Shown: in pieces, positions 6,273 to 29,715 of the stretch
Layout of the letters: each line of letters begins with the position of its first letter
Position numbering within the stretch: the stretch's first letter is position 1
DNA from: Phyllobacteriaceae bacterium
Lineage (GTDB): Bacteria; Pseudomonadota; Alphaproteobacteria; Rhizobiales; Rhizobiaceae
Direction: 5' to 3'
Length of the DNA: 64,000 nt
Assembly (NCBI GenBank): GCA_024742765.1
Contig: JANSXT010000009.1
Span: 80,586-144,585, forward strand
Notes under the pieces: generated by a model
Seen by the model: only the letters and a program-made list of their open reading frames with translations
Databases searched by the model: none
Told to the model about the DNA's origin: nothing
Program-made: the position numbers and the translations under genes

Positions 6273-7175
6273 ATGACGACCATCGAAATCGTGGAAGTGT
6301 CGCCGCGCGACGGGCTCCAGAACGAAAAGACGCTGCTGTCGACCGATGACAAGCTGATGCTGATCGGCAAGGCGATCGATGCGGGTGTCCGACGCATGGA
6401 GGTTGCGAGTTTCGTCAATCCGAAGAAGGTGCCGCAAATGGCCGATGCGGAAGCGGTGATGGCCGGCCTGCCGGCGCGCGATGATGTTACCTATGTCGGT
6501 CTTGCGCTGAACGAACGCGGGTTCGAGCGCGCCGTTGCGGCCCATGTCGACGAGGTCAATTTCGCGGTGATGGCGTCCGACACGTTCAACCGGTGCAACC
6601 AGGGCGCCGACGCGTTCGAGACGGCGCGACAACTCACCACGATTGCCGAAAGCGCACGCGGCACCGTGCCGATTGGCGTGACCATCGGCACCGCGTTCGG
6701 CTGTCCCTTTGAAGGAGAGGTGTCGCTTGATCGCGTGCTGTCGCTGGTCGAAGCGGTCGCTGCAACGTCGCCGCGCGAGATAGCATTGGCCGATACGATC
6801 GGCGTGGCGACACCCCGCGATGTGGCTGAGCGCATCGGCGCGGTGCGGGCGCGCTTTGCCGAACTTCCGATCCGCTGCCATTTCCACAACACGCGCAACA
6901 CCGGCATCGCCAACGCGTGGGCTGCCATCGAAGCGGGCGCTGCGACGCTCGATTCAAGCCTTGGCGGCGTCGGCGGCTGTCCGTTCGCGCCTGCGGCCAC
7001 CGGCAACATCGCCACCGAAGATCTGGTCTACATGCTCGATCGCGCCGGCATTGCGACCGAGCTCGACCTTGGCGCCTGCATCGAGACGGCCCAATGGCTC
7101 GAAGATAGGCTCGGTCATGCCATTCCCGGCCAGGTGATGAAGGCCGGCGGTTTTCCCGCGCCGGCCTCCGCATGA
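6273..7175 (+). CDS. Hydroxymethylglutaryl-CoA lyase family protein (HMGL-like)
   Basis: IVEVSPRDGLQNE at the N-terminus, CHFHNTRNTGIANAWAAIEAGA and GLGGCPFAP-like GGVGGCPFAPAATGN. These are classic HMGL/DRE-TIM motifs. Confidence 0.9.
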   Translation: MTTIEIVEVSPRDGLQNEKTLLSTDDKLMLIGKAIDAGVRRMEVASFVNPKKVPQMADAEAVMAGLPARDDVTYVGLALNERGFERAVAAHVDEVNFAVMASDTFNRCNQGADAFETARQLTTIAESARGTVPIGVTIGTAFGCPFEGEVSLDRVLSLVEAVAATSPREIALADTIGVATPRDVAERIGAVRARFAELPIRCHFHNTRNTGIANAWAAIEAGAATLDSSLGGVGGCPFAPAATGNIATEDLVYMLDRAGIATELDLGACIETAQWLEDRLGHAIPGQVMKAGGFPAPASA

Positions 7176-9422
7176 TCAGTCCGCGCCGCGCACGCGGATC
7201 GACAGGCCTTCCTTGGGCTTGATGACGCGCTGGACGAAGAAGACCAGCACGGCCATCCCGACGCCGATCACATCGGTGATCACCGAACCCTCGATCAGCA
7301 CCAATGCCGTGCCGATCAGCGCTGCGCGCAGGAACCAGACCGTCCGTTTGCCGAAGAACCAGCCCTGTACGCCCGAGGCGAGCAGGAACACGCCGAGCAT
7401 CGCCGTCAGGAACGCGCGGATGATCTCGAACGTGTGCGCCTCCATCAAAAGCGCTGAGTTGTAGAAGAACATGAACGGCACGACGAAGGCGGCGATGCCG
7501 ATCTTGAACGAGGTGACCGAGGTCTCCATCGGGTTGGCGCCGGACACGCCGGCCGCCGCATAGGATGCCAACGCCACCGGCGGCGTGATCGCCGAGACGA
7601 CCGCGAAGTAGAAGACGAAGAAATGGGCGACCAGTGGCTGGATGCCCAGTTCGACGAGGCCCGGCGCGACCACGGATGCGGCAACGGCATAGGCAGCCGT
7701 CGTCGGCATGCCCATGCCCAGAAGGATGGCGATGCACATGGCAAAGACCAGCGCCAGCAATTGCGAGGCTTCGGCGAGGCCGAGCAGCAGGTTGGAGAAG
7801 CGGGCGCCGACGCCGGTCAGCGAGATGACGCCGACAATGATGCCGGCGCAGGCGCACACGGCGATGATCTGGATCGACATGACGCCGGCGATGTTGAACG
7901 CCTTGACGATTGAGCGCAGGCCCATCCGGTAGGGCGTGAACCAGCTCACCACGGCGGCGGCGGCGGTGGCGAGCGTACCCGCGCGGATCACCGAATAGCC
8001 CTGGAACAGCGCATAGATCAGGATGATGATCGGGATGAACAGGAAGACGCGCCGCGCCATGTCGCGGAATTTGGGCAGTTCGTCCTCGCGCATGCCGCGC
8101 ATGCCGAGTTTCGCCGCCTCGAAGTCGACCATGAAGTAGATCGAGACGAAGTAGAGAACGGCCGGAATGAGCGCGGCGACGGCAATCTCGGTGTAGGGAA
8201 TGCCGGTGATCTCGGCCATGATGAAAGCGCCGGCGCCCATGATGGGCGGCATGATCTGCCCGCCTGTGGAGGCGGCGGCTTCGATCGCGCCGGCGGTCTT
8301 CTTGTGATAGCCGACCTTCTTCATCAGCGGGATGGTCAGTGAGCCGGTGGCGACGACATTTCCCGCGCTGGTGCCGTTGATCATGCCCATCAGGCCCGAG
8401 GCGAAGATGGCCACCTTGGCCGGCCCGCCGCGTGCGCGGCCGGCGGCGGCAAAGGCGAAGTTGACGAAATAGTCGCCGACCTTGGACGCCTGCAGGAAGG
8501 CAGCGAAGATGATGAACAGGATAATATAGGTGGACGAGACCGCCGTCGTCGGACCCAAAATGCCGGCGTCCGTGTAGACTTGGGAGAAGAAGCGCTGCCA
8601 GGAGATGGCCGGCGAATTCAAAAAGCCCGGCAGGTGCTGGCCGGTGAAGACATAGACCAGGAAGACAAGCGAGATCACCACCAGAGCCATGCCGGCGACG
8701 CGGCGCGTCAGCTCCATGATCAAAAGCGCGCCGGCAACCGCCGCGATCGAAATGCCGATCGGCGCGAAGGGCGTGCCGGTCGAGTTGCGCATCAGCGTGC
8801 CGTAGATGGTGATCAGATAGGCGGCGACGGCGACGCCGCAGACCGCGAGCACGAGATCGAGCGGATTGATGGCGCCGCGCGGGCGCCTGTCGAACCAGGA
8901 CAGCGCAATGGCCCCGACGGTTGCGGCCATCAGCGGCGCGCCGAACATCCAAGTCTCGTTGAAGCGGATGCGTTCGTCGATGCCGTTCCACATCACGCCG
9001 CCCGATATCTCGACCGAAAAGGACAGCGCCATGCCAAGCGCGAACAGCGCCGGCAGCATCAGCACCATCGCCGCGCCGGTGAACAGCGCGCCGCCGCCCT
9101 GCCGGTCGTCGGGTGCAAAGCGGGTGCCGCTGAACAAAAGAAAGCCCAGCGCCAGTGCGCCGGCGATATGGACGATCCGGAAGTTCCAGGTCTCCATGGG
9201 GAAGGTGGGCAGGAACGGGATGACAATGGCGCCACCGGTCATCTCCGAGATCGACAGCCCGTTCAGTGCCGCCATGTGGAAGGCGGCATAGACCGTGGCG
9301 ACCAGGCTGACGAGGAGATAGGTGCGCCCCTCGTAAAGGCGGCGGTTGCTCTCGACGGGTTCCTCGTCGACGCCGTCGGCAATGACGGCGCCTTGGTCAT
9401 GTTCGGTGGCTTGGCTCGTCAT
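7176..9422 (-). CDS. TRAP transporter fused permease (DctQ-DctM fusion, TAXI-type)
   Basis: ORF 7176..9461 trimmed to ATG 9422, which has a strong GGGAGG 8 nt upstream. About 750 aa, polytopic and hydrophobic, with a composition typical of TAXI-associated fused TRAP permeases. Confidence 0.9.
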   Translation of the reverse strand: MTSQATEHDQGAVIADGVDEEPVESNRRLYEGRTYLLVSLVATVYAAFHMAALNGLSISEMTGGAIVIPFLPTFPMETWNFRIVHIAGALALGFLLFSGTRFAPDDRQGGGALFTGAAMVLMLPALFALGMALSFSVEISGGVMWNGIDERIRFNETWMFGAPLMAATVGAIALSWFDRRPRGAINPLDLVLAVCGVAVAAYLITIYGTLMRNSTGTPFAPIGISIAAVAGALLIMELTRRVAGMALVVISLVFLVYVFTGQHLPGFLNSPAISWQRFFSQVYTDAGILGPTTAVSSTYIILFIIFAAFLQASKVGDYFVNFAFAAAGRARGGPAKVAIFASGLMGMINGTSAGNVVATGSLTIPLMKKVGYHKKTAGAIEAAASTGGQIMPPIMGAGAFIMAEITGIPYTEIAVAALIPAVLYFVSIYFMVDFEAAKLGMRGMREDELPKFRDMARRVFLFIPIIILIYALFQGYSVIRAGTLATAAAAVVSWFTPYRMGLRSIVKAFNIAGVMSIQIIAVCACAGIIVGVISLTGVGARFSNLLLGLAEASQLLALVFAMCIAILLGMGMPTTAAYAVAASVVAPGLVELGIQPLVAHFFVFYFAVVSAITPPVALASYAAAGVSGANPMETSVTSFKIGIAAFVVPFMFFYNSALLMEAHTFEIIRAFLTAMLGVFLLASGVQGWFFGKRTVWFLRAALIGTALVLIEGSVITDVIGVGMAVLVFFVQRVIKPKEGLSIRVRGAD

Positions 9423-9578
9423 GATGTTCCCCTCCCGCTGGCCGACCGCGCTCCGGGACATTTTTCCGTTCCTGATGTACAGCGGTCAAATTGATCGTGC
9501 ATGGCATGGGTCCGGCGGGTGATCGTTTCGTCGGCCGGCGCCAGTTTGAACAACGCATTTTCGGGAAGGAGAGCGGTC

Positions 9579-10811
9579 ATGGTTCTCAGATTGATGATTT
9601 CACTGGTTGCGATTTTCGGTTTCGCGACGGTCGCCGCGGCGCAGGATCAGATCTGCGGCGGCATTGGCGACGATGGCGCATGGGCGGGCGGCGATGCGGA
9701 CATGTCGGACATTGCAACGGCGGACGCACCGTTCGATGCGTCCGGCGTCAGCGCGCGCGGCGAAAACATCGTCACGCTGTTCGCCGTTAGCGACACCGCG
9801 CAGGTGCGGCTCGAGGCGCAGCCGACCGATGGCGGCGACACGGTGATCGAATTGTTCGGCGATGCGGGCACGCGCATCCTCACCGATGATGACAGCGGCC
9901 AGGGATCGGGCTCGATGGCCGAGACCGAACTGGCGCCCGGCACCTATTGTCTGGTGACCTCGAGCTATAGCGGGGCGGGCCAGACCGCCGACATACGCAT
10001 CGGTCTGACCAGCCATGAACCGATGAGCCCCGACGGCGAAACGTCCGTCAGCCAGGCCTGTGCGCCCGGTGCCGAGGCGGCCGATCTGTATGACGGCCCG
10101 ATCGCCGGGCTTTCGGGCGAGGGCCTGTCGATGACGGCCTCGGTCCGGCAGACGCCGGCCTATCGTTTCACGCTGGCCGAGCCGACTGCGATGACCATCT
10201 ATGCGGAAGGCACCCCCGCCGATCCGGTGCTGCATCTGTTTGACGGCGAAGGCACCCTTCTGGGCGAGAACGACGATGCGGACGGCCGCAATGCGCGGCT
10301 CGATTTCCCCGCGGCGCTGCCGGCGGGCGATTACTGCATCGGTCTGCGTGCCTTGTCGGACGAGAACGCGCCGGTGCGCGTCAGCTTGGTGCCGCACAGC
10401 GTGGAGGCCGTGTTGTCGCGTCTCTATGCGACGGGAAAGGCCGCGCCGCCGCCCGGTAGCGATCATCCGGTCATGGCGCTCGGTGCGGCCGATGGCCGGC
10501 TGATCGAGGATGTCGTGCTCGACAAGGACGCGGTCTGGCTGCGCTTTTCGGTTCCGGCAAGCGGGATGATGGTGATCGAGGCGGTGGCGCTCGGCGAGAT
10601 CGATCCGGCGATCACGCTGTTCGACGAACTGGGCCGCACGATCATGCACAATGACGATATGGGGCAGGGCAACACGGACAGCCTGATCGCCACGCGCATC
10701 GCGCCGGGCGACTATCTTCTGGCCGTCACGCGGATCGAGGATGGCGTGGCGACGCCGGTGCGGCTTGCCATCGAGCGGTTCGTACCCGCCGGCAAGAGCA
10801 TCGACCGCTAG
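9579..10811 (+). CDS. Secreted protein with three pre-peptidase C-terminal (PPC)-like repeats
   Basis: ORF 9501..10811 trimmed to ATG 9579 (GGAAGGAG upstream). Signal peptide MVLRLMISLVAIFGFATVAAA/QD. Three repeats of about 130 aa share the pattern D..[IL].LFD..G..[IL]...DD..G......[IL].[AP]G.Y.[IL].V. Confidence 0.75.
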   Translation: MVLRLMISLVAIFGFATVAAAQDQICGGIGDDGAWAGGDADMSDIATADAPFDASGVSARGENIVTLFAVSDTAQVRLEAQPTDGGDTVIELFGDAGTRILTDDDSGQGSGSMAETELAPGTYCLVTSSYSGAGQTADIRIGLTSHEPMSPDGETSVSQACAPGAEAADLYDGPIAGLSGEGLSMTASVRQTPAYRFTLAEPTAMTIYAEGTPADPVLHLFDGEGTLLGENDDADGRNARLDFPAALPAGDYCIGLRALSDENAPVRVSLVPHSVEAVLSRLYATGKAAPPPGSDHPVMALGAADGRLIEDVVLDKDAVWLRFSVPASGMMVIEAVALGEIDPAITLFDELGRTIMHNDDMGQGNTDSLIATRIAPGDYLLAVTRIEDGVATPVRLAIERFVPAGKSIDR

Positions 10812-10872: not shown

Positions 10873-11856
10873 TCAGCCGCCATGGACCATGTCGGCGGCA
10901 ATCTCGGCGCCGGCATTTTCCGTGAACCACTTGGCCGCACCGGGATGCCATTTCATCACGGTGTTCTTGTCCCAGTTCTCGGGCAGGGTCGAGCGGGCGG
11001 CGCGGTGGATGTTCACCATCCGCTCATTGTCCGACATGACGACGTCGACGACCGCTTCAACGAAGCTCTCCGGCAGATCGCAATTGGCGATGGCGAAGTT
11101 CCACATCGACACGGATCGCGCATCGGCTTCAAGCGTCGTATAGGTGTCGGCGGCGATCATGAACTCGGAAACCGGGAAGGCTTCCATGATGGCGGCCTGC
11201 TCTTCGGCGGTGAACTCGATGATGTTCACGTCGGTCTGCACTTCAAGCTGGCTGACGGCGGGGACCGGCACGCCGGCCGCGAACGCGATCACGTCCAGAA
11301 GGCCGTCCTGAAGCTGGCCGCCGAGATCGGACCAGCCGCCATTGCGGCGCTCAAATTCGACGCCGAGCGTTTCCATCATGCGCGGGAAGTAGGTGTCCGA
11401 CGTCGAGCCGGCGGGGCCGAAGCCGATTTTTGCACCGGCCGGAATGTCCGATACCGCTTCAATGCCCGACGATGACAGAGCGGTCACCGAGAAGGGCGTC
11501 TGGTACATGGGAAACATCGCGCAGGCATTGGTCATCTCAAGGCCCGGTGCGATCGGGTTGGTTCCGCCGATCGATTCGGCGGCGGGGCCCATGGTGGTCA
11601 TGCCGAACGCGGCTTCGCCGGTGTGCACGAGCGCCATGTTCTGCATCGGACCGCCGGTGACTTCGCCGCCGCCGGAGATGCCAAGTTCCTCGGCGACCAG
11701 ATTGGCCCAGCCCGAACCATAGGCGAAATAGGTTCCGCCCTGCGAGGCGGTTCCGACGGTGAAGCTCTCCGGCCAGCCTTCGCGGTCCTGTGCGATGGCG
11801 CCCGAGGCGGTGACGGCGACGGTCGCAACGGCGGCCATCAGAATTGACAGTTTCAT
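10873..11856 (-). CDS. TAXI-family TRAP transporter solute-binding protein
   Basis: ORF 10873..12117 trimmed to ATG 11856 (AGGAGG upstream). Signal peptide MKLSILMAAVATVAVTASGAIA, then FTVGTASQGGTYFAYGSGWANLV, the TAXI (immunogenic-protein-type) N-terminal signature. Confidence 0.85.
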   Translation of the reverse strand: MKLSILMAAVATVAVTASGAIAQDREGWPESFTVGTASQGGTYFAYGSGWANLVAEELGISGGGEVTGGPMQNMALVHTGEAAFGMTTMGPAAESIGGTNPIAPGLEMTNACAMFPMYQTPFSVTALSSSGIEAVSDIPAGAKIGFGPAGSTSDTYFPRMMETLGVEFERRNGGWSDLGGQLQDGLLDVIAFAAGVPVPAVSQLEVQTDVNIIEFTAEEQAAIMEAFPVSEFMIAADTYTTLEADARSVSMWNFAIANCDLPESFVEAVVDVVMSDNERMVNIHRAARSTLPENWDKNTVMKWHPGAAKWFTENAGAEIAADMVHGG

Positions 11857-12088
11857 GAATTCCTCCTGTTCGGATCGTTCGGCCGGTCGCGCGGTGTTGC
11901 GCGAGCCGACACCGGGCGGACCGGTCCGTATGCGAAAGTTCCTCCCCACCCGAACGCCCGGCTGGCGGGCGTTGCGGAGGCATCGGGCATGAGCGGCCCC
12001 GGGCGCAAGGGCGACCAAACGGATTTGCCGCATTGGCGGGCTAGAGTTTGCCGCCATGGGTGCGAGGGGGAACATGACGGCCCATATC

Positions 12089-12108
12089 ATGTGTCGGAAC
12101 CGACACAT
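12089..12108. promoter_or_regulatory. 20-nt dyad ATGTGTCGG-AA-CCGACACAT (protein-binding site or weak hairpin)
   Basis: Perfect 9-nt inverted arms. It lies 16 nt past the dctD stop and about 233 nt upstream of the TAXI binding-protein start. No U-tract follows on either strand. Confidence 0.35.
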
Positions 12109-12123
12109 CGGCCGCAAGGCCGC

Positions 12124-15362: not shown

Positions 15363-15617
15363 GACGCGATTATGGCGCGCCCGGCGGCGCTTGAGAAGAT
15401 GATTCGGGCAATGGCGTTAAGCCTTTCCGCCAATGGTGCTTTTTCGCTTGTCGGCGGTTCTGCGGCGCCGGCCGTCCAGAAGCCGATTTGCGGGAACAGT
15501 CCCGGGGCGCTGCCCTGTCCCGCACGCAGAGTTAGCCGTTAATCTTAACGCCCGCTTATACTTGTCAATGACTTCCGGCCTCGGCTAGCGCGGTAACCCA
15601 AGCGTCGGAGGTGTGTC

Positions 15618-17174
15618 ATGACTTGGAACTTTGCTTGTCGCTTTGCTCGGTGTGCCGATCAGTATTCGGATCGAATGGCGCTCGTCGACGGCAAGACAAG
15701 GCTCACCTATGGTGCACTCGCCGAACGGGTTCAACGCGTCGCCGGCCAACTCCGCCCGGTGCTTGGCGAAGGGCGTGTCGGCGTCCTTGGCTCGCGCAGC
15801 GTCGAGGCATGCACGGGGTTCCTTGGAACCGCCTGGGCTGGCGGGACCTATGTGCCTCTCGGCCTCAACCAGCCCGAAGCCCGCCTGATCGCGCTTTTCG
15901 AAGAGCTTGAACTTGATGCATTGATCGTCGACCGGACGGGCGCGAAACGCCTGTCGCCCGAACTCAGGCGCGCCGCGCCCAAGCTGGTTCTTGTTCCCGC
16001 CAACGAGCCGGGCCATTTCGTGCCGCTCGGCGCTGCCGGCCCGGTGCCGGAGCCGCTCGCCGAACCCGCCACTGTCGATGCCGATCATCTTGCCTATATC
16101 ATCTTCACCTCCGGCACGACCGGCATGCCCAAGGGCGTGATGGTCAATGCCCGGTCCTTTTCGCTTTATCTCGATGCGATCGCGCCCTGGTACCGGCTTG
16201 GCCCCGACGATCGGGCGGCGGAAACCTGCGAGACCAATTTCGATCTGTCGATCCACAACATGATGACGGCCTGGATGGCCGGCGCGTCGCTTTACATCAT
16301 GCGGCCGCTCGACCTGGTGTCGCCGGCGCGCTTCGTTCGCGCTCATGAGATCACGACCTGGCTGTCGGTGCCTTCGATCATCGCGCTGATGCGGCAGGCG
16401 GGCGGTTTGACCGCCGATAGCCTGCCGTCGCTGCGCCTGTCCTGGTTCTGCGGCGAACCGCTTTCCGAGCAGGCGGTGCGCGATTGGGCCGCGGCCGCGC
16501 CCAACAGCGTCATCGGGAACTTTTATGGCCCGACCGAGATCACGGTCGCCGTGTTGCGCCAGCGCTGGCATGGCGATGGTCCGCTGACGCCCGAACGCGG
16601 CATCGTTGCGATCGGCACGCCGATTGACGGCGTCGAAGCGCTGATCGTGGATGAAAAACGCCAGCCGGTTCCCGATGGGACGCCCGGCGAGATCGCCCTT
16701 GCGGCCGAGCAATGCTCGCAAGGCTATTTCCGCAAGCCCGATCTGACCGCCGAACGGTTTCCGCAGATCAATGGCAAGCCGGGCTATCTGACCGGTGACC
16801 GCGGCTACAGGGATGCCGATGGCGTGTTCCATCACCTGGGCCGGCTCGACAACCAAATTAAGTTCAAGGGGCACCGCATCGAGCTTGAAGAGATCGACGC
16901 ACGGCTGCGTGAAGCCACCGGCTCGGCGATGGTCGGCACGGTGACCTGGCCGACAGAGGGCCATGTGGTGAAGGGGCTGGCCGGCTTTTATGCCGTGTCG
17001 GGTCTTGATGCCGAAGAGGTACGTTCGCGGCTGCGCAAGACGCTGCCGGCCTACATGGTGCCCGAGCGGCTGGAGAACCTCGCCAAGATGCCGCTCAGCG
17101 GCAATGGCAAGGTGGACCGCAAGGCGCTCATCGCCGGACTGGACGCCGGCGAACAGAAGCGGGATGTCGCCTGA
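15618..17174 (+). CDS. Stand-alone NRPS-type adenylation enzyme, DltA-like (amino acid--carrier protein ligase)
   Basis: A-domain cores are present: LAYIIFTSGTTGMPKGV, NFDLSIHN, NFYGPTEITV, YLTGDRGY, GRLDNQIKFKGHRIELEEID, LPAYMVP, NGKVDRKAL. GGAGG lies upstream of ATG 15618. Confidence 0.85.
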   Translation: MTWNFACRFARCADQYSDRMALVDGKTRLTYGALAERVQRVAGQLRPVLGEGRVGVLGSRSVEACTGFLGTAWAGGTYVPLGLNQPEARLIALFEELELDALIVDRTGAKRLSPELRRAAPKLVLVPANEPGHFVPLGAAGPVPEPLAEPATVDADHLAYIIFTSGTTGMPKGVMVNARSFSLYLDAIAPWYRLGPDDRAAETCETNFDLSIHNMMTAWMAGASLYIMRPLDLVSPARFVRAHEITTWLSVPSIIALMRQAGGLTADSLPSLRLSWFCGEPLSEQAVRDWAAAAPNSVIGNFYGPTEITVAVLRQRWHGDGPLTPERGIVAIGTPIDGVEALIVDEKRQPVPDGTPGEIALAAEQCSQGYFRKPDLTAERFPQINGKPGYLTGDRGYRDADGVFHHLGRLDNQIKFKGHRIELEEIDARLREATGSAMVGTVTWPTEGHVVKGLAGFYAVSGLDAEEVRSRLRKTLPAYMVPERLENLAKMPLSGNGKVDRKALIAGLDAGEQKRDVA

Positions 17175-18679
17175 TGAGCACCGTCGTCGCACCCGAAGGC
17201 GGCGCCCGGCCGACGCCGACGATCAATCCGCTTGCCTGGCGGCGCTGGTGGCTGGGGATCGACTGCAATGACCGTGTGATCGCCTGGGCCCAGACGCTGA
17301 CCGGGCAGGCGATGATCCATGTCATCCTTCTGACCTGTCTGGCGCTGATGCCGGTCATTCGCCTCAACCATGTGGCGCTGATCGCGGTGTCGCTCTTTCT
17401 GTGCTGGGTTTTTCCGCACCGGCGTATGATGGTCGTCGCCTTGATGGGCACGACCTACTTCCTGCTGCGGCCGTTCAAGCACGGCCAGCTCTACGACTAT
17501 TTCGACCAGACACCGCTGGCGGGCATGACCGCATGGGCAAGCCTTCCGGCCGACCTGCTGCTGCTGCCGTTCGGCCTGGTCTTCCTCGTCTTTGCGTTCG
17601 CGATGATGTGGAACCACACACACAAGCGCGTGCGGTTCGTCAGCGATTACCCGCTATTGTCCATGACGGGGCTTGGCGTCCTTCTGACGTCGCTGACGGT
17701 GATGATGCCGCAGAACCAGTTCGTGTTCCTTCCGGCCTGGCTGGCGCTGTCCTATCTGACGTCGACCTTCTTCTTCCTGGGCTATGTGCTGATCGACATG
17801 CGGAGCAAGACGCCGCTGCCGCTTTCGCTGCGGCTGGGGTTCATGCGGCCGTTCTGGGCCGGGTTCTTCACGCCGATCAAGGGCCCCGCCTATTTCGTCA
17901 AATTCGAAGCGAACTCGGACCGCGACCTGGCCGTCTCTCGACTGAAGGGACTCAAGCTCATCGTCTGGGCGTCGATCCTGTTCTTCATCTGGGAGTGGGG
18001 CTTCCAACGGCTGATCTACGGCCATCTGGCCTTTCCCAAACTGGATGTGCTGATCGCGGCGGTTGCCGCTGGCGATACGGTCTATCTGGGCATGCGCTGG
18101 GCCGCCGTCGGCGTCGACTTCATGGCCATGGTGATCATGATGGGTGCTGCCATGCATGCCATTGTCGCAGCGGTCCGGGTCGCCGGTTTTGCCATTCCGC
18201 GCGGCATGGTGCGGCCGCTCGCCTCGCGCACGATCGCCGAGTTCTGGGGCCGGTATCTGTTCTATTTCAAGGAGATGCTGGTCGACTTCTTCTTCTATCC
18301 GGCGTTCCGCCGCTACTTCAAGAACAGTCCGCGCCTGCGGATGGCATTTGCGACCTTCTGTGCCGCCTTCATCGGCAACGTCTTTTTCGACTTCTTCCAT
18401 GCCTTGCCGCTGATCGCCATTTCCGACAGCCAGGTCATCTGGCAGGGCTTTGTGTCCTACTGCGTCTATGCGGGCATCCTGACCGCCGGCATCATCTGGT
18501 CGCAACAGTTCCAGCGGGCGCCGAAGCCAGAGCATGGCTGGTTCCGCTACAATGTGCTGCCGCGCATGCAGGTGATCGTCTTCTTTGCCCTTTTGCAGGT
18601 CGTCGACGATTCACTGGCGGTCGTGCCGATCGGCGAACGGCTTTCCTACCTCATCGGTCTTTTTGGAGTATCGGTATGA
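17174..18679 (+). CDS. MBOAT-family membrane protein, DltB/AlgI-like
   Basis: Polytopic, 501 aa. GFAIPRGMVRPLASRTIAEFWGRYLFYFKEMLVDFFFYP aligns residue-for-residue, from my memory of the sequence, with B. subtilis DltB GF..P.NF..PF.S..I.DFW.RWH.S.S.W.RDY. FFDFFHALP aligns with GVWHGLAP exactly 47 residues later. TGATG overlap with the upstream gene. Confidence 0.75.
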   Translation: MSTVVAPEGGARPTPTINPLAWRRWWLGIDCNDRVIAWAQTLTGQAMIHVILLTCLALMPVIRLNHVALIAVSLFLCWVFPHRRMMVVALMGTTYFLLRPFKHGQLYDYFDQTPLAGMTAWASLPADLLLLPFGLVFLVFAFAMMWNHTHKRVRFVSDYPLLSMTGLGVLLTSLTVMMPQNQFVFLPAWLALSYLTSTFFFLGYVLIDMRSKTPLPLSLRLGFMRPFWAGFFTPIKGPAYFVKFEANSDRDLAVSRLKGLKLIVWASILFFIWEWGFQRLIYGHLAFPKLDVLIAAVAAGDTVYLGMRWAAVGVDFMAMVIMMGAAMHAIVAAVRVAGFAIPRGMVRPLASRTIAEFWGRYLFYFKEMLVDFFFYPAFRRYFKNSPRLRMAFATFCAAFIGNVFFDFFHALPLIAISDSQVIWQGFVSYCVYAGILTAGIIWSQQFQRAPKPEHGWFRYNVLPRMQVIVFFALLQVVDDSLAVVPIGERLSYLIGLFGVSV

Positions 18680-18924
18680 ACAGCGAGAAACTGAACGCAC
18701 TGCGCCAATCGATCAGCGAGATGCTGGTCAATCGCGGACTGCCTGCCGAATTCGACGATGGCGACTCGCTGTTCGACAGCGGTCGTCTGGACTCGATGTC
18801 CGCAGTCAACCTGCTGATGGAGCTCGAAGCGCAATTCGACCTGGACCTCAGCGACCCGGACTTCGATGTGTCCCGGATCGACACGTTCACCGAGATCAGG
18901 GACATGCTCAAGCAGGCAGCCTGA
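18676..18924 (+). CDS. Small carrier protein, DltC/ACP-like (82 aa)
   Basis: Read from the tail of track ORF 17401..18924. MNSEKLNALRQSISEML...DSLFDSGRLDSMSAVNLLMELEAQFD carries the LDS phosphopantetheine-attachment serine (Ser40, nt 18793-18795). ATGA overlap with the MBOAT gene stop. Confidence 0.8.
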   Translation: MNSEKLNALRQSISEMLVNRGLPAEFDDGDSLFDSGRLDSMSAVNLLMELEAQFDLDLSDPDFDVSRIDTFTEIRDMLKQAA

Positions 18925-19528: not shown

Positions 19529-19561
19529 TGCATTATATATCATAATTGGCATTATATTGCC
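19529..19561. promoter_or_regulatory. Degenerate BoxR-type TGCA-repeat operator overlapping an AT-rich promoter-like stretch upstream of dctP
   Basis: TGCATTATATATCA and GGCATTATATTGCC form a direct repeat of GCATTATAT. CATAAT is a possible -10 element. The site lies 45-75 nt upstream of ATG 19604. Confidence 0.35.
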
Positions 19562-27877: not shown

Positions 27878-28252
27878 TTGGGGAAAAACACCGTGAAAAA
27901 GGCCGTCAACCTGAAAGAAGAGCTGGCGCTTTTCGAGGAGCATTGGTCGCCGAAGATCGTTGGCGAATACAACGGCAACGAGGTGATGGTGGTCAAGTTC
28001 AAGGGCGAGTACCCGTTTCATAGCCACGCCGACACCGATGATTTCTTCCTCGTTCTGGAAGGGCGGATGACGATGGAGTTGCGCGACCGGAAAATCGAAG
28101 TCGGTCCCGGCGAGTTGTTCATCGTGCCCAAGGGCGTCGAACACCGCCCCGTGGCGGAGGAAGAAGTGAAAGTGCTTCTGATTGAGCCGAAAGGCGAACC
28201 GAACAGCGGCGACAGCACCGAACGTGCACCGGCCGTCAAGGAATGGATTTAA
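27878..28252 (+). CDS. Small single-domain cupin protein
   Basis: FHSHADTDDFFLVLEGRMTMEL...GELFIVPKGVEHRPVA contains cupin motifs 1 and 2. The start is ambiguous (TTG 27878 or GTG 27893). Confidence 0.75.
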   Translation: MGKNTVKKAVNLKEELALFEEHWSPKIVGEYNGNEVMVVKFKGEYPFHSHADTDDFFLVLEGRMTMELRDRKIEVGPGELFIVPKGVEHRPVAEEEVKVLLIEPKGEPNSGDSTERAPAVKEWI

Positions 28253-28263
28253 GGGAGACTGGA

Positions 28264-29715
28264 ATGCTCGATCTCATCAATGTCAGCTACGACACGCAAA
28301 TCCCCAACAATGTCAGGCTTTCGTCGGACAAGCGCGTGCTCAAGGCGCTGGAGAAGTGGCATCCCGGTTACATCAATTGGTGGAACGACCTGATCCCGGA
28401 CAATTTCCAGCAGTCGCTCGTCTATCTGCGCACCGCCGTCTCCGTTGACCCCAAAGGCTGGGCCAAGTTCGATTATGTGAAGATGCCCGAATATCGCTGG
28501 GGCGTGCTGCTGGCCCCGCAGGTCGAGGACCGCACGATCCCGTGCGGCGAACATGCGGGCGAGGCGGCCTGGCAGGAAGTGCCGGGCGAATACCGCGCCA
28601 TGCTGCGCCGGCTGATCGTCATCCAGGGCGACACCGAACCCGCGTCCGTCGAGCAGCAGCGGTTTTTGGGCAAGACCGCGCCGTCGCTCTACGACATGCG
28701 CAACCTATTCCAGGTCAATGTGGAGGAGGGGCGGCACCTTTGGGCGATGGTCTATCTGTTGCACAAATATTTCGGCCGCGACGGCCGCGAGGAGGCCGAC
28801 GATCTGCTGCGCCGCTCGTCGGGCTCGGAGGAAGCGCCGCGCATGCTGGGCGCCTTTAACGAGGAAACGCCGGACTGGCTCAGCTTCTTCATGTTCACCT
28901 ATTTCACCGACCGCGACGGCAAGATGCAGCTTGAATCGCTCGCCCAGTCGGGTTTTGACCCGCTGTCGCGCACCTGCCGCTTCATGCTCACCGAGGAAGC
29001 GCACCACATGTTCGTCGGCGAGACCGGCGTCGGCCGGACCATTCAGGCGACGTGCGAAGCGATGGCGAAGGCCGGCATCGAGGACCCCTACGACACGGAC
29101 GCGATCCGCGCTCTGGGCGTCATCGATCTGCCGACGATCCAGAAGAAGCTGAACCTGCACTACACTCTGTCGCTGGACCTGTTTGGCCAGGAGGTTTCGA
29201 CCAACGCGGCAAACGCCTTCAATGCCGGCATCAAGGGCCGCTATATGGAAAGCCGGATCGACGACGACCACAAGCTGCATGGCGACACCTATGAGGTCTG
29301 GGACTTCGAGGACGGCAAGCTGGTGCGCAAGGAGGTGCCGGCGCTGACGGCGATCAACATGCGCCTGCGTGACGACTATACGCGCGATGCGTCGGGCGGT
29401 GTCGGCCGCTGGAACAAGATCATCGAGAAGGCCGGCATCGATTTTCAGATGAAGCTGCCGCATGAATCCTTCAACCGGAAGATCGGTGTGTTTGCCGACA
29501 AGCTGTTCGACCCGGACGGCACGCTGGTGTCGGGCGCGGACTATGATGCGGGTCTGCCCAATTGGCTGCCGACCAAGGCCGATGGCGACTTCATCCAGTC
29601 GTTGATGGTGCCGGTCTACGAGCCCGGCCAGTATGCAAGCTGGATCGCGCCGCCCAAGGTCGGCATCGACAACAAGCCGGGCGACTTCGAGTACGTCAAG
29701 CTGCACATGGCCTGA
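28264..29715 (+). CDS. boxB: Benzoyl-CoA 2,3-epoxidase subunit B (diiron oxygenase) BoxB
   Basis: ORF 28243..29715 trimmed to ATG 28264 (AGGGAG upstream). Diiron ligand blocks VEEGRHLWAM and LTEEAHHMFVG. Its length and context match BoxB. Confidence 0.92.
   Translation: MLDLINVSYDTQIPNNVRLSSDKRVLKALEKWHPGYINWWNDLIPDNFQQSLVYLRTAVSVDPKGWAKFDYVKMPEYRWGVLLAPQVEDRTIPCGEHAGEAAWQEVPGEYRAMLRRLIVIQGDTEPASVEQQRFLGKTAPSLYDMRNLFQVNVEEGRHLWAMVYLLHKYFGRDGREEADDLLRRSSGSEEAPRMLGAFNEETPDWLSFFMFTYFTDRDGKMQLESLAQSGFDPLSRTCRFMLTEEAHHMFVGETGVGRTIQATCEAMAKAGIEDPYDTDAIRALGVIDLPTIQKKLNLHYTLSLDLFGQEVSTNAANAFNAGIKGRYMESRIDDDHKLHGDTYEVWDFEDGKLVRKEVPALTAINMRLRDDYTRDASGGVGRWNKIIEKAGIDFQMKLPHESFNRKIGVFADKLFDPDGTLVSGADYDAGLPNWLPTKADGDFIQSLMVPVYEPGQYASWIAPPKVGIDNKPGDFEYVKLHMA

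Follow-up and report, generated by a model that had tools for sequence, protein, structure and literature searches.

A conserved Dlt-like cassette of three genes encoding an adenylation enzyme, a remote MBOAT-fold membrane protein and a DltC-like carrier protein

Several described systems place amino acids or acyl groups on envelope components. DltABCD together with DltX D-alanylates teichoic acids in Firmicutes and has Gram-negative counterparts in the Bordetella dra locus and in enterobacterial dltXABCD; within the dlt and dra loci the DltD- and DltX-type genes are linked to the others. The AlmEFG system of Vibrio cholerae puts glycine onto lipid A: AlmE loads a small amino acid on the carrier AlmF for use on an envelope lipid, and AlmG is a cytoplasmic-face lysophospholipid/LpxL-type acyltransferase that does not have an MBOAT (membrane-bound O-acyltransferase) fold. 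Proteins with that fold, in which tilted helices ring a reaction chamber, also operate in PatA/PatB, AlgI/AlgJ/AlgX and WssH, where the acyl group is presumed to leave a donor in the cytoplasm and reach the inner membrane's outer face; the PatA/AlgI/WssH type has acetyl-CoA as its donor, two extra helices that end in FxYxxF, and always an SGNH partner (PMC12148441). Bacterial MBOAT acylation is described as using a C-terminal FxYxxF tyrosine shuttle, which either DltX carries or a pair of additional helices joins to the MBOAT itself, together with an SGNH transferase (PMC12148441). Eukaryotic MBOATs (DGAT1, ACAT1, LPCAT3, HHAT, PORCN) use acyl-CoA donors and fatty acyl groups, and transfer directly to the final acceptor with no relay. 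Here we describe a locus of three genes, A, B and C, in a 64,000 bp stretch of a Phyllobacteriaceae genome (contig JANSXT010000009.1, positions 80,586 to 144,585; referred to below as the window), which of these known systems functions most like Dlt, yet is not a member of it.

The first-pass annotation, made from the sequence of the window, had described the locus as three translationally coupled genes forming a Dlt-like trio of A domain, membrane transferase and carrier protein. The gene coordinates and junctions are as it gave them, and the trio itself is borne out by the domain, fold and carrier matches described below. All three genes are intact and on the same strand, with overlaps of A and B at TGATG (17172-17176) and of B and C at ATGA (18676-18679), as read from the sequence:

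15618-17174, plus strand: gene A, 518 aa, stand-alone adenylation enzyme of the nonribosomal peptide synthetase (NRPS) type
17174-18679, plus strand: gene B, 501 aa, polytopic membrane protein, remote MBOAT-fold relative
18676-18924, plus strand: gene C, 82 aa, DltC-like carrier protein

Our preferred interpretation, to which we give somewhat better than even chances, is that this is a self-contained Dlt-like aminoacyl-transfer cassette in which B would transfer the aminoacyl group directly to a lipid or lipid-linked glycan that is anchored in the membrane.

The homology of B with DltB is visible only with hhalign, with HMMER run with its filters off (--max) and with Foldseek, and a B family profile compared with PDB sequences at default filters gives 0 matches at E<=10. 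An AlphaFold model of B (51 homologues) has a predicted local distance difference test score (pLDDT) of 93.1 and a predicted template modelling score (pTM) of 0.91, and its 23 best Foldseek matches in the PDB are all MBOATs, with a probability of 0.99-1.0 for the eukaryotic ones. DltB comes first (6bug_C, E 7.2e-5; 8jem), followed by PORCN, HHAT, DGAT1, LPCAT3, MBOAT7 and ACAT; identity of B to the eukaryotic enzymes is just 11-14%. Comparison of the B family with a DltB alignment by hhalign gives a probability of 86.8% (E 4e-6), or 92.2% with a broader family alignment (E 6e-7), over residues 246-452, and the B family hidden Markov model (HMM) run with filters off on DltB sequences scores 17-23.5 bits (p ~1e-9 to 1e-8). 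The core motif PRGMVRPLASRTIAEFWGRY of B aligns with PINFDKPFISRDMKEFWNRWH of DltB, and the shared core, from the MBOAT region ...SxxEFWxRWH..., reads ...aRmaGF.alRNtyrPLeSrtiaEFWNRyy... in B and ...SNLMGIKSPINFDKPFISRDMKEFWNRWH... in DltB. The basic helix of B and Arg389 align with DltB Lys312-Arg317, with Arg389 opposite DltB Arg317 (hhalign). On profile alignment and structure prediction, then, B belongs remotely to the MBOAT fold, and of known proteins DltB is its nearest relative. It is not a DltB orthologue and belongs to a separate, unannotated family. A protein 100% identical to B, from a Phyllobacteriaceae metagenome-assembled genome (MAG), is annotated as 'hypothetical protein', and none of the database matches to B, or to a profile of its distant relatives, has a precomputed Pfam domain.

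The likeness to Dlt is more direct in the carrier protein. C matches Pfam PP-binding (1.8e-7), and its phosphopantetheine serine, Ser40 (nt 18793-18795), lies within LDS-M-S-A-V, so that the 82-aa DltC-like carrier with an LDS serine in the first reading of this DNA is upheld. Its best NCBIfam matches are the DltC models NF003464 and TIGR01688, with scores of 38 and 33.7 bits that fall below their cutoffs of 68 and 52.35. D-alanyl carrier proteins take the first six places among its PDB matches (1dv5, 3.6e-6; 8jf2_F and 6bug_A, ~5e-5), and generic acyl carrier proteins rank behind DltC, at E 7e-3 or worse. The C segment slfdsgrLDSMsaVnLLmELeaqF aligns with nlfetglLDSMgtVqLLlELqsqF of DltC, and Met41 and Val44 are the equivalents of DltC Met36 and Val39, so that the Ser-Met-x-x-Val face is kept. 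In the DltB-DltC structure, Met36 and Val39 pack against DltB's horizontal helix HC (PMC11035591).

The three genes travel together. A, B and C are adjacent in approximately 73 of 85 related alphaproteobacterial loci (about 85%) and in every remote locus examined, and the trio that had been treated as one unit from a single genome is thus conserved as a unit, also in loci of other phyla. The arrangement is A-B-C, A-C-B or B-C-A, or has B converging on C and A, with unrelated flanks in each case. Such loci come from Hyphomicrobiales, Sphingomonadales, Acidobacteriota and Desulfobulbaceae, and from metagenome contigs that have no assignment. We clustered all open reading frames (ORFs) of >=90 aa, and separately those of 25-95 aa, around 84-85 of the related loci. 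Among the larger ORFs there is no conserved neighbour beyond the trio, only antisense shadow ORFs and lineage-specific genes, and among the small ones in 85 loci the carrier C is alone, with no DltX-like ORF. A DltD/SGNH gene is linked to the trio neither in the 84-85 loci, nor in the remote loci, nor among the window genes scanned, the rest of the genomes lying outside this search. The clustering likewise found no linked glycosyltransferase or exopolysaccharide (EPS) gene, in agreement with the earlier observation for the window that no glycosyltransferase, EPS or DltD-like gene is nearby, and no AlmG-like or other acyltransferase is conserved near the trio. The B protein itself does not carry a shuttle: it terminates where DltB terminates, with no two additional C-terminal helices, and its C-terminal family motif [ED]R..F[LF].[SH]LFG has no conserved Tyr and no FxYxxF. 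This motif more probably corresponds to DltB FLIFSG than to a tyrosine shuttle; in DltB, Phe400 and Phe403 of FLIFSG line the pocket (PMC11035591).

Because no relay component (SGNH/DltD, DltX or FxYxxF) is linked to the trio in any lineage, direct transfer is favoured over an MBOAT-Tyr-SGNH relay, and we liken it to that of the eukaryotic MBOATs, since those act on their substrates without a relay. Of the other explanations, the one that survives best is that the chemistry is the same and the relay canonical, with DltX- and DltD-like partners that are unlinked and an aminoacyl group that is passed to a periplasmic polymer. All mechanistically studied bacterial MBOAT acylation systems do use a tyrosine shuttle and an SGNH protein (PMC12148441), and B has the DltB-type architecture without shuttle helices, which in DltB goes with a separate DltX. 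However, approximately 95 loci from several phyla have no linked SGNH gene and no conserved small ORF, and the repeated movement of exactly three genes argues for a self-sufficient cassette, so we consider a relay with distant partners unlikely.

Two further gene families occur beside the trio or its relatives. A 361-aa polytopic protein with no Pfam match is encoded directly 3' of the carrier gene in a Hoeflea/Oricola sub-clade (L001:11761-12846, plus strand, and also L013, L014 and L015), and is found neither in the window nor in the remaining loci. We rejected it as a fourth component, as it is present at only 4 loci and has left no remnant in the spacer that follows C in the window. Several Rhizobiaceae and Lentilitoribacter genomes have an orphan B paralogue, near which neither A nor C is encoded, and four of five such paralogues are second copies beside a full trio in the same genome. 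At three loci (L048, L049 and L053) the orphan B directly follows a gene of ~400 aa for an Acetyltransf_6 protein (PF13480, a CelD/FemAB-like Gcn5-related N-acetyltransferase (GNAT)); in L048 this gene is at 6755-7966 (plus strand) and the paralogue at 7980-9461. At L050, L060, L064, L065 and L068 an Acetyltransf_6 gene likewise lies ~1 kb upstream of A. The position of such a gene next to orphan B hints that membrane enzymes of this one family could draw on a different cytoplasmic donor.

MBOATs have an invariant catalytic His, which in DltB is His336, and a further polar residue that is His289 in DltB and Asn or Asp elsewhere. By hhalign, DltB His289 is placed opposite B Leu362 and His336 opposite the non-conserved Val421, and neither has a His counterpart in B. 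The key codons in B are as follows:

18155-18157, plus strand: codon of His328
18377-18379, plus strand: codon of Asn402
18389-18391, plus strand: codon of Asp406
18398-18400, plus strand: codon of His409

Nine positions (R335, G338, Y364, K366, E367, R389, G401, N402 and S443) are essentially invariant among 267 members of the B family. Position 406, at the end of the motif GNxL[YF]H, is His in 204 of the 267 (76%), Asp in 39, and Ser or Thr in 21, with Ser in a Bosea-type clade; B of the window has Asp406 in place of the family His (GNVFFDFFH). The family His406 is in the same helix as the counterpart region of DltB His336, and although hhalign does not align the two, spacing from a conserved FKN/Arg motif would. 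His328 is present in 234 of the 267 members, is invariant in the clade to which B of the window belongs, and falls in the helix equivalent to DltB FDFAGYSMF (hhalign). That DltB helix provides Phe250 and Tyr253 of the active pocket (PMC11035591). The two histidines are nearly complementary, with both in 174 members, only His328 in 60, only His406 in 30 and neither in 3, and 264 members therefore retain at least one. This pattern is suggestive of overlapping roles, although the sequences are phylogenetically non-independent and the pattern is no proof. B of the window is of the His328-only type, and its additional His409 is common only to its closest relatives. Residues 402-409 are inside a long helix (386-416) and not at its tip, by the helix boundaries of the AlphaFold model. 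In DGAT1 and ACAT1 the His is mid-helix, and in DltB it is at the helix tip (PMC11035591); the depth of Asn402 and His406 appears to recall the former more than the latter, as judged from helix boundaries and not from a superposition.

The Asp406, together with the Leu at the position of DltB His289 and the prevalence of His406 in the family, could also be read to mean that B in the clade of the window is catalytically impaired or repurposed, either as a binding or translocating subunit or as part of a decaying cassette. We regard this as improbable. The three genes in the window are intact and translationally coupled; the clade without His406 spans Hoeflea, Oricola, Roseitalea and Bosea at 38-71% identity, with all the other invariant residues kept; and His328 does not vary within it, loss of both histidines being confined to the three members noted above. 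With Asp406 in place of His406, the invariant His328, accompanied by His409 in the closest relatives, would need to provide the catalytic base in this clade.

The A protein matches Pfam AMP-binding (5.9e-70), and its best NCBIfam match is TIGR01733 (amino-acid adenylation domain; 3.7e-93), where its 312.5 bits are just under the cutoff of 317.4. Next come the DltA models, TIGR01734 with 241.5 bits (cutoff 559.85) and NF003417 with 246.7 bits (cutoff 476). With TIGR01733 the best match and the DltA models this far below their cutoffs, A is an NRPS-type A domain and not a DltA orthologue. Its closest PDB relatives are NRPS A domains, the stand-alone A enzymes 6akd and 8k4r, AlmE (4oxi, 1.3e-62) and DltA (7r27, 1.8e-54). 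Glycine specificity on the strength of a match to LgrA (3.9e-94) was dropped, as that score sums two A domains of one chain (148.9 + 167.1 bits). The cores A1-A10 are recognizable by eye in the translation, with A6 degenerate, and the motifs FDLS and NGKVDR are at residues 208-211 and 496-501; with the qualification on A6, this is what the first-pass annotation had reported. Asp209 within FDLS (nt 16242-16244) corresponds to GrsA Asp235, and Lys498 within NGKVDR (nt 17109-17111) to GrsA Lys517. Pocket codes were extracted against GrsA-PheA numbering, which was confirmed, with DltA of B. subtilis and B. cereus as references:

A of the window: DLHLWCFVAK
71 A proteins adjoining B homologues: DLH[LM]xC[IF][VI][AVI]K
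DltA: DLMT[ML]CTVAK

The code of A has six of its ten positions in common with DltA (D, L, C301, V330, A331 and K). Position 301 is Cys in both, a residue that in DltA we take to select between D-Ala and L-Ala, and the remaining pocket positions are bulky and hydrophobic. The pocket suggests that the substrate may be an amino acid whose side chain is small (D-Ala, Ala or Gly). The positions of Asp235 and Lys517 are kept in A of the window and in 71 of 76 members of the A family, which argues for an alpha-amino acid. The latter bears directly on a further explanation, that A activates a fatty, hydroxy or aryl acid and B is an ordinary O-acyltransferase with an acyl-carrier-protein donor. The shortfall of A at the TIGR01733 cutoff, its weaker NCBIfam matches to acyl-CoA ligase models, and the fact that MBOATs commonly transfer fatty acyl or acetyl groups are in keeping with such a system. 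We nevertheless find it very improbable, given the conserved Asp and Lys, the best matches of A to NRPS A domains, DltA and AlmE and not to fatty-acyl ligases, and a carrier that is DltC-like and not AcpP-like. A minimal non-ribosomal pathway to a secondary metabolite, with B as exporter or tailoring enzyme, has hardly any claim on the data: stand-alone A domain and carrier pairs are common in natural-product clusters, but no condensation, thioesterase, reductase or other biosynthetic gene is conserved beside the trio at the loci, and the fold of B is that of an acyltransferase and not of a transporter.

Under direct transfer by a self-contained cassette, A would adenylate a small alpha-amino acid, of a size that the pocket could accommodate (D-Ala, Ala or Gly), and would then load it as a thioester on the phosphopantetheine arm of C at Ser40, as in the chemistry of the family. 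The conserved docking residues lead us to expect that the acidic C would use its Ser-Met-x-x-Val face to dock on B as DltC does on DltB, the site on B being the basic horizontal helix at the cytoplasmic side (residues 363-389). B would pass the aminoacyl group through an intramembrane reaction chamber of the kind its fold implies, to an acceptor that would be accessible from the membrane or from the periplasmic side. A more specific and more tentative version, which we think possible without expecting it, is that the cassette represents a third architecture for taking acyl groups across the inner membrane of bacteria, in which a carrier-fed MBOAT-fold enzyme directly aminoacylates a membrane lipid or lipid-linked glycan of diderm bacteria with D-Ala, Ala or Gly, using neither a tyrosine shuttle nor an SGNH protein, and having a non-canonical centre of Asn402 with His406 and/or His328.

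Several observations weigh against a self-contained transferase of this kind. Besides the Asp406 and the lack of counterparts for the DltB histidines, B has no Pfam or NCBIfam match at E<=0.1, and none of 51 B homologues matches an MBOAT model even at E<=10. The first-pass description of B as an MBOAT that aligns with the DltB core is thus upheld by hhalign, the family HMM and Foldseek, and fails formally where curated models are concerned, as neither Pfam nor NCBIfam recognizes an MBOAT in B or in the 51 homologues. The Foldseek TM-scores are also modest, at 0.42-0.49 (0.42/0.49 for 6bug_C). The substrate proposed for A is a deduction from its pocket residues and not a validated prediction, the search for DltD- and DltX-like partners covered linked genes and not whole genomes, and the catabolic and transport genes around the cassette in the window point to no acceptor.

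Comparison with the known systems reflects these features. Like Dlt, the cassette has coupled genes, an A pocket that is DltA-like, a small and acidic carrier with the Ser-Met-x-x-Val docking face, and a membrane protein for which DltB is the nearest structure and which has the core motif P..RP..SR...EFWNR in common with it. Unlike Dlt, its A and C proteins score far under the DltA and DltC equivalog cutoffs, B lacks a Pfam MBOAT match and the DltB histidines by alignment, and neither DltD (SGNH) nor DltX is linked in the approximately 95 loci; the hosts are diderm bacteria, which are not known to have teichoic acids. It is because of the unreached A and C equivalog cutoffs, the unmatched MBOAT HMM and the absence of DltD and DltX in cis that we do not count it as a Dlt system. 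Neither is it AlmEFG, whose transferase is of another class than the MBOAT fold of B. It has the MBOAT fold of the PatA and AlgI types, but is not one of these because its donor is a carrier protein and it has no shuttle and no SGNH partner.

Relatives of B were found in 403 of 185,579 species in a scan of one genome per species. The best 80 of these 403 fall almost entirely within the Hyphomicrobiales (genera Hoeflea, Oricola, Roseitalea, Bosea, Shinella, Rhizobium, Mesorhizobium, Nitratireductor and Lentilitoribacter), with a few Sphingomonadales and one Roseovarius. A B profile run against 1.84 billion representatives matched 1,054 clusters (50% identity) at E<=1e-3, and a profile of the distant members retrieves proteins, 'hypothetical' throughout and with no Pfam domain, from Xanthomonadales/Lysobacterales, Desulfobulbaceae, Bryobacteraceae, Candidatus Acidiferrum and other groups; one JGI record among the distant matches bears the name 'DltB (MBOAT superfamily)'. 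Alphaproteobacteria are not the only hosts of the cassette. No match to B was found by tblastn in 72,556 plasmids. At L082 (CBDDIJ010000004.1) a full A-B-C trio is on a contig of a 'Candidatus Obscuribacterales' MAG, with its other best matches alphaproteobacterial, and this represents either horizontal transfer or a binning error. A full-text literature search returned no description of such a trio, and to the extent of that search the locus is not previously characterized.

The surroundings of the cassette in the window include two features read from the sequence:

15607-15611, plus strand: ribosome-binding site GGAGG, 7 nt 5' of the A start codon
18925-19603, between the cassette and a TRAP transporter gene: non-coding spacer of 679 bp, short ORFs only

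Upstream is a DctB/DctD-like two-component pair, and downstream, past the 679-bp spacer, a dctPQM-like tripartite ATP-independent periplasmic (TRAP) transporter, so that the dctBD neighbours and the long non-coding spacer first reported for this locus are indeed there. The other window genes are catabolic and transport genes: besides the DctBD-like sensor pair there are TRAP transporters, CoA ligases and a paa cluster, flanks that the relatives do not have. The spacer holds no long ORF and does not resemble the DNA 3' of the cassette in 85 related loci; it forms the cassette's 3' boundary and probably does not belong to it. An Rfam scan of the whole window, spacer included, gave no match, and a scan for sigma-70 promoters and terminators found nothing exceeding shuffled expectation. 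Two sigma-54-like TGG...GC elements, at 15434-15447 (5' of A) and 19547-19560 (5' of dctP), were not accepted because by eye their GG-GC spacing is 9 nt and the canonical spacing is 10; both occur beside the sigma-54-dependent DctD-like regulator. The GC content of the B/C region (0.61) is slightly lower than that of the flanks (0.65-0.68). Elsewhere in the window, a gene at 7176-9461 (minus strand) encodes a 761-aa protein with a DctM domain, which is possibly a fused TRAP large and small subunit, and its neighbours encode an NMT1_3 (TAXI-type) binding protein and a secreted-looking PPC-domain protein (9501-10811, plus strand, and 10873-12117, minus strand). A 490-aa ORF at 28243-29715 (plus strand), with a high GC content at third codon positions and no Pfam match, has as its neighbours, at 26.2-43.8 kb, genes for enoyl-CoA hydratase, ferredoxin-reductase and the catabolism of phenylacetate (paa).

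Dlt-like genes in diderm bacteria are not astonishing per se. What sets this cassette apart is an unannotated MBOAT-fold family, the consistent absence in cis of the relay parts and an altered histidine pattern, and it thereby probes the generalization that bacterial MBOATs always work via a tyrosine shuttle and an SGNH partner. The B family is widespread, yet almost everywhere annotated as 'hypothetical protein'. There are culturable hosts (Bosea, Shinella, Rhizobium and Hoeflea), and as just three genes are involved the question of the acceptor is directly testable. Aminoacylated envelope parts such as D-alanyl teichoic acids, glycyl lipid A and lysyl-phosphatidylglycerol govern the charge of the surface, the resistance to cationic peptides and the interaction with the host, and the cassette would add an unrecognized system of the envelope-aminoacylation type to diderm bacteria. 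If the third architecture is true, the Gram-negative envelopes of Hyphomicrobiales, Xanthomonadales, Desulfobulbaceae and Acidobacteriota would prove to have an aminoacyl modification not seen before.

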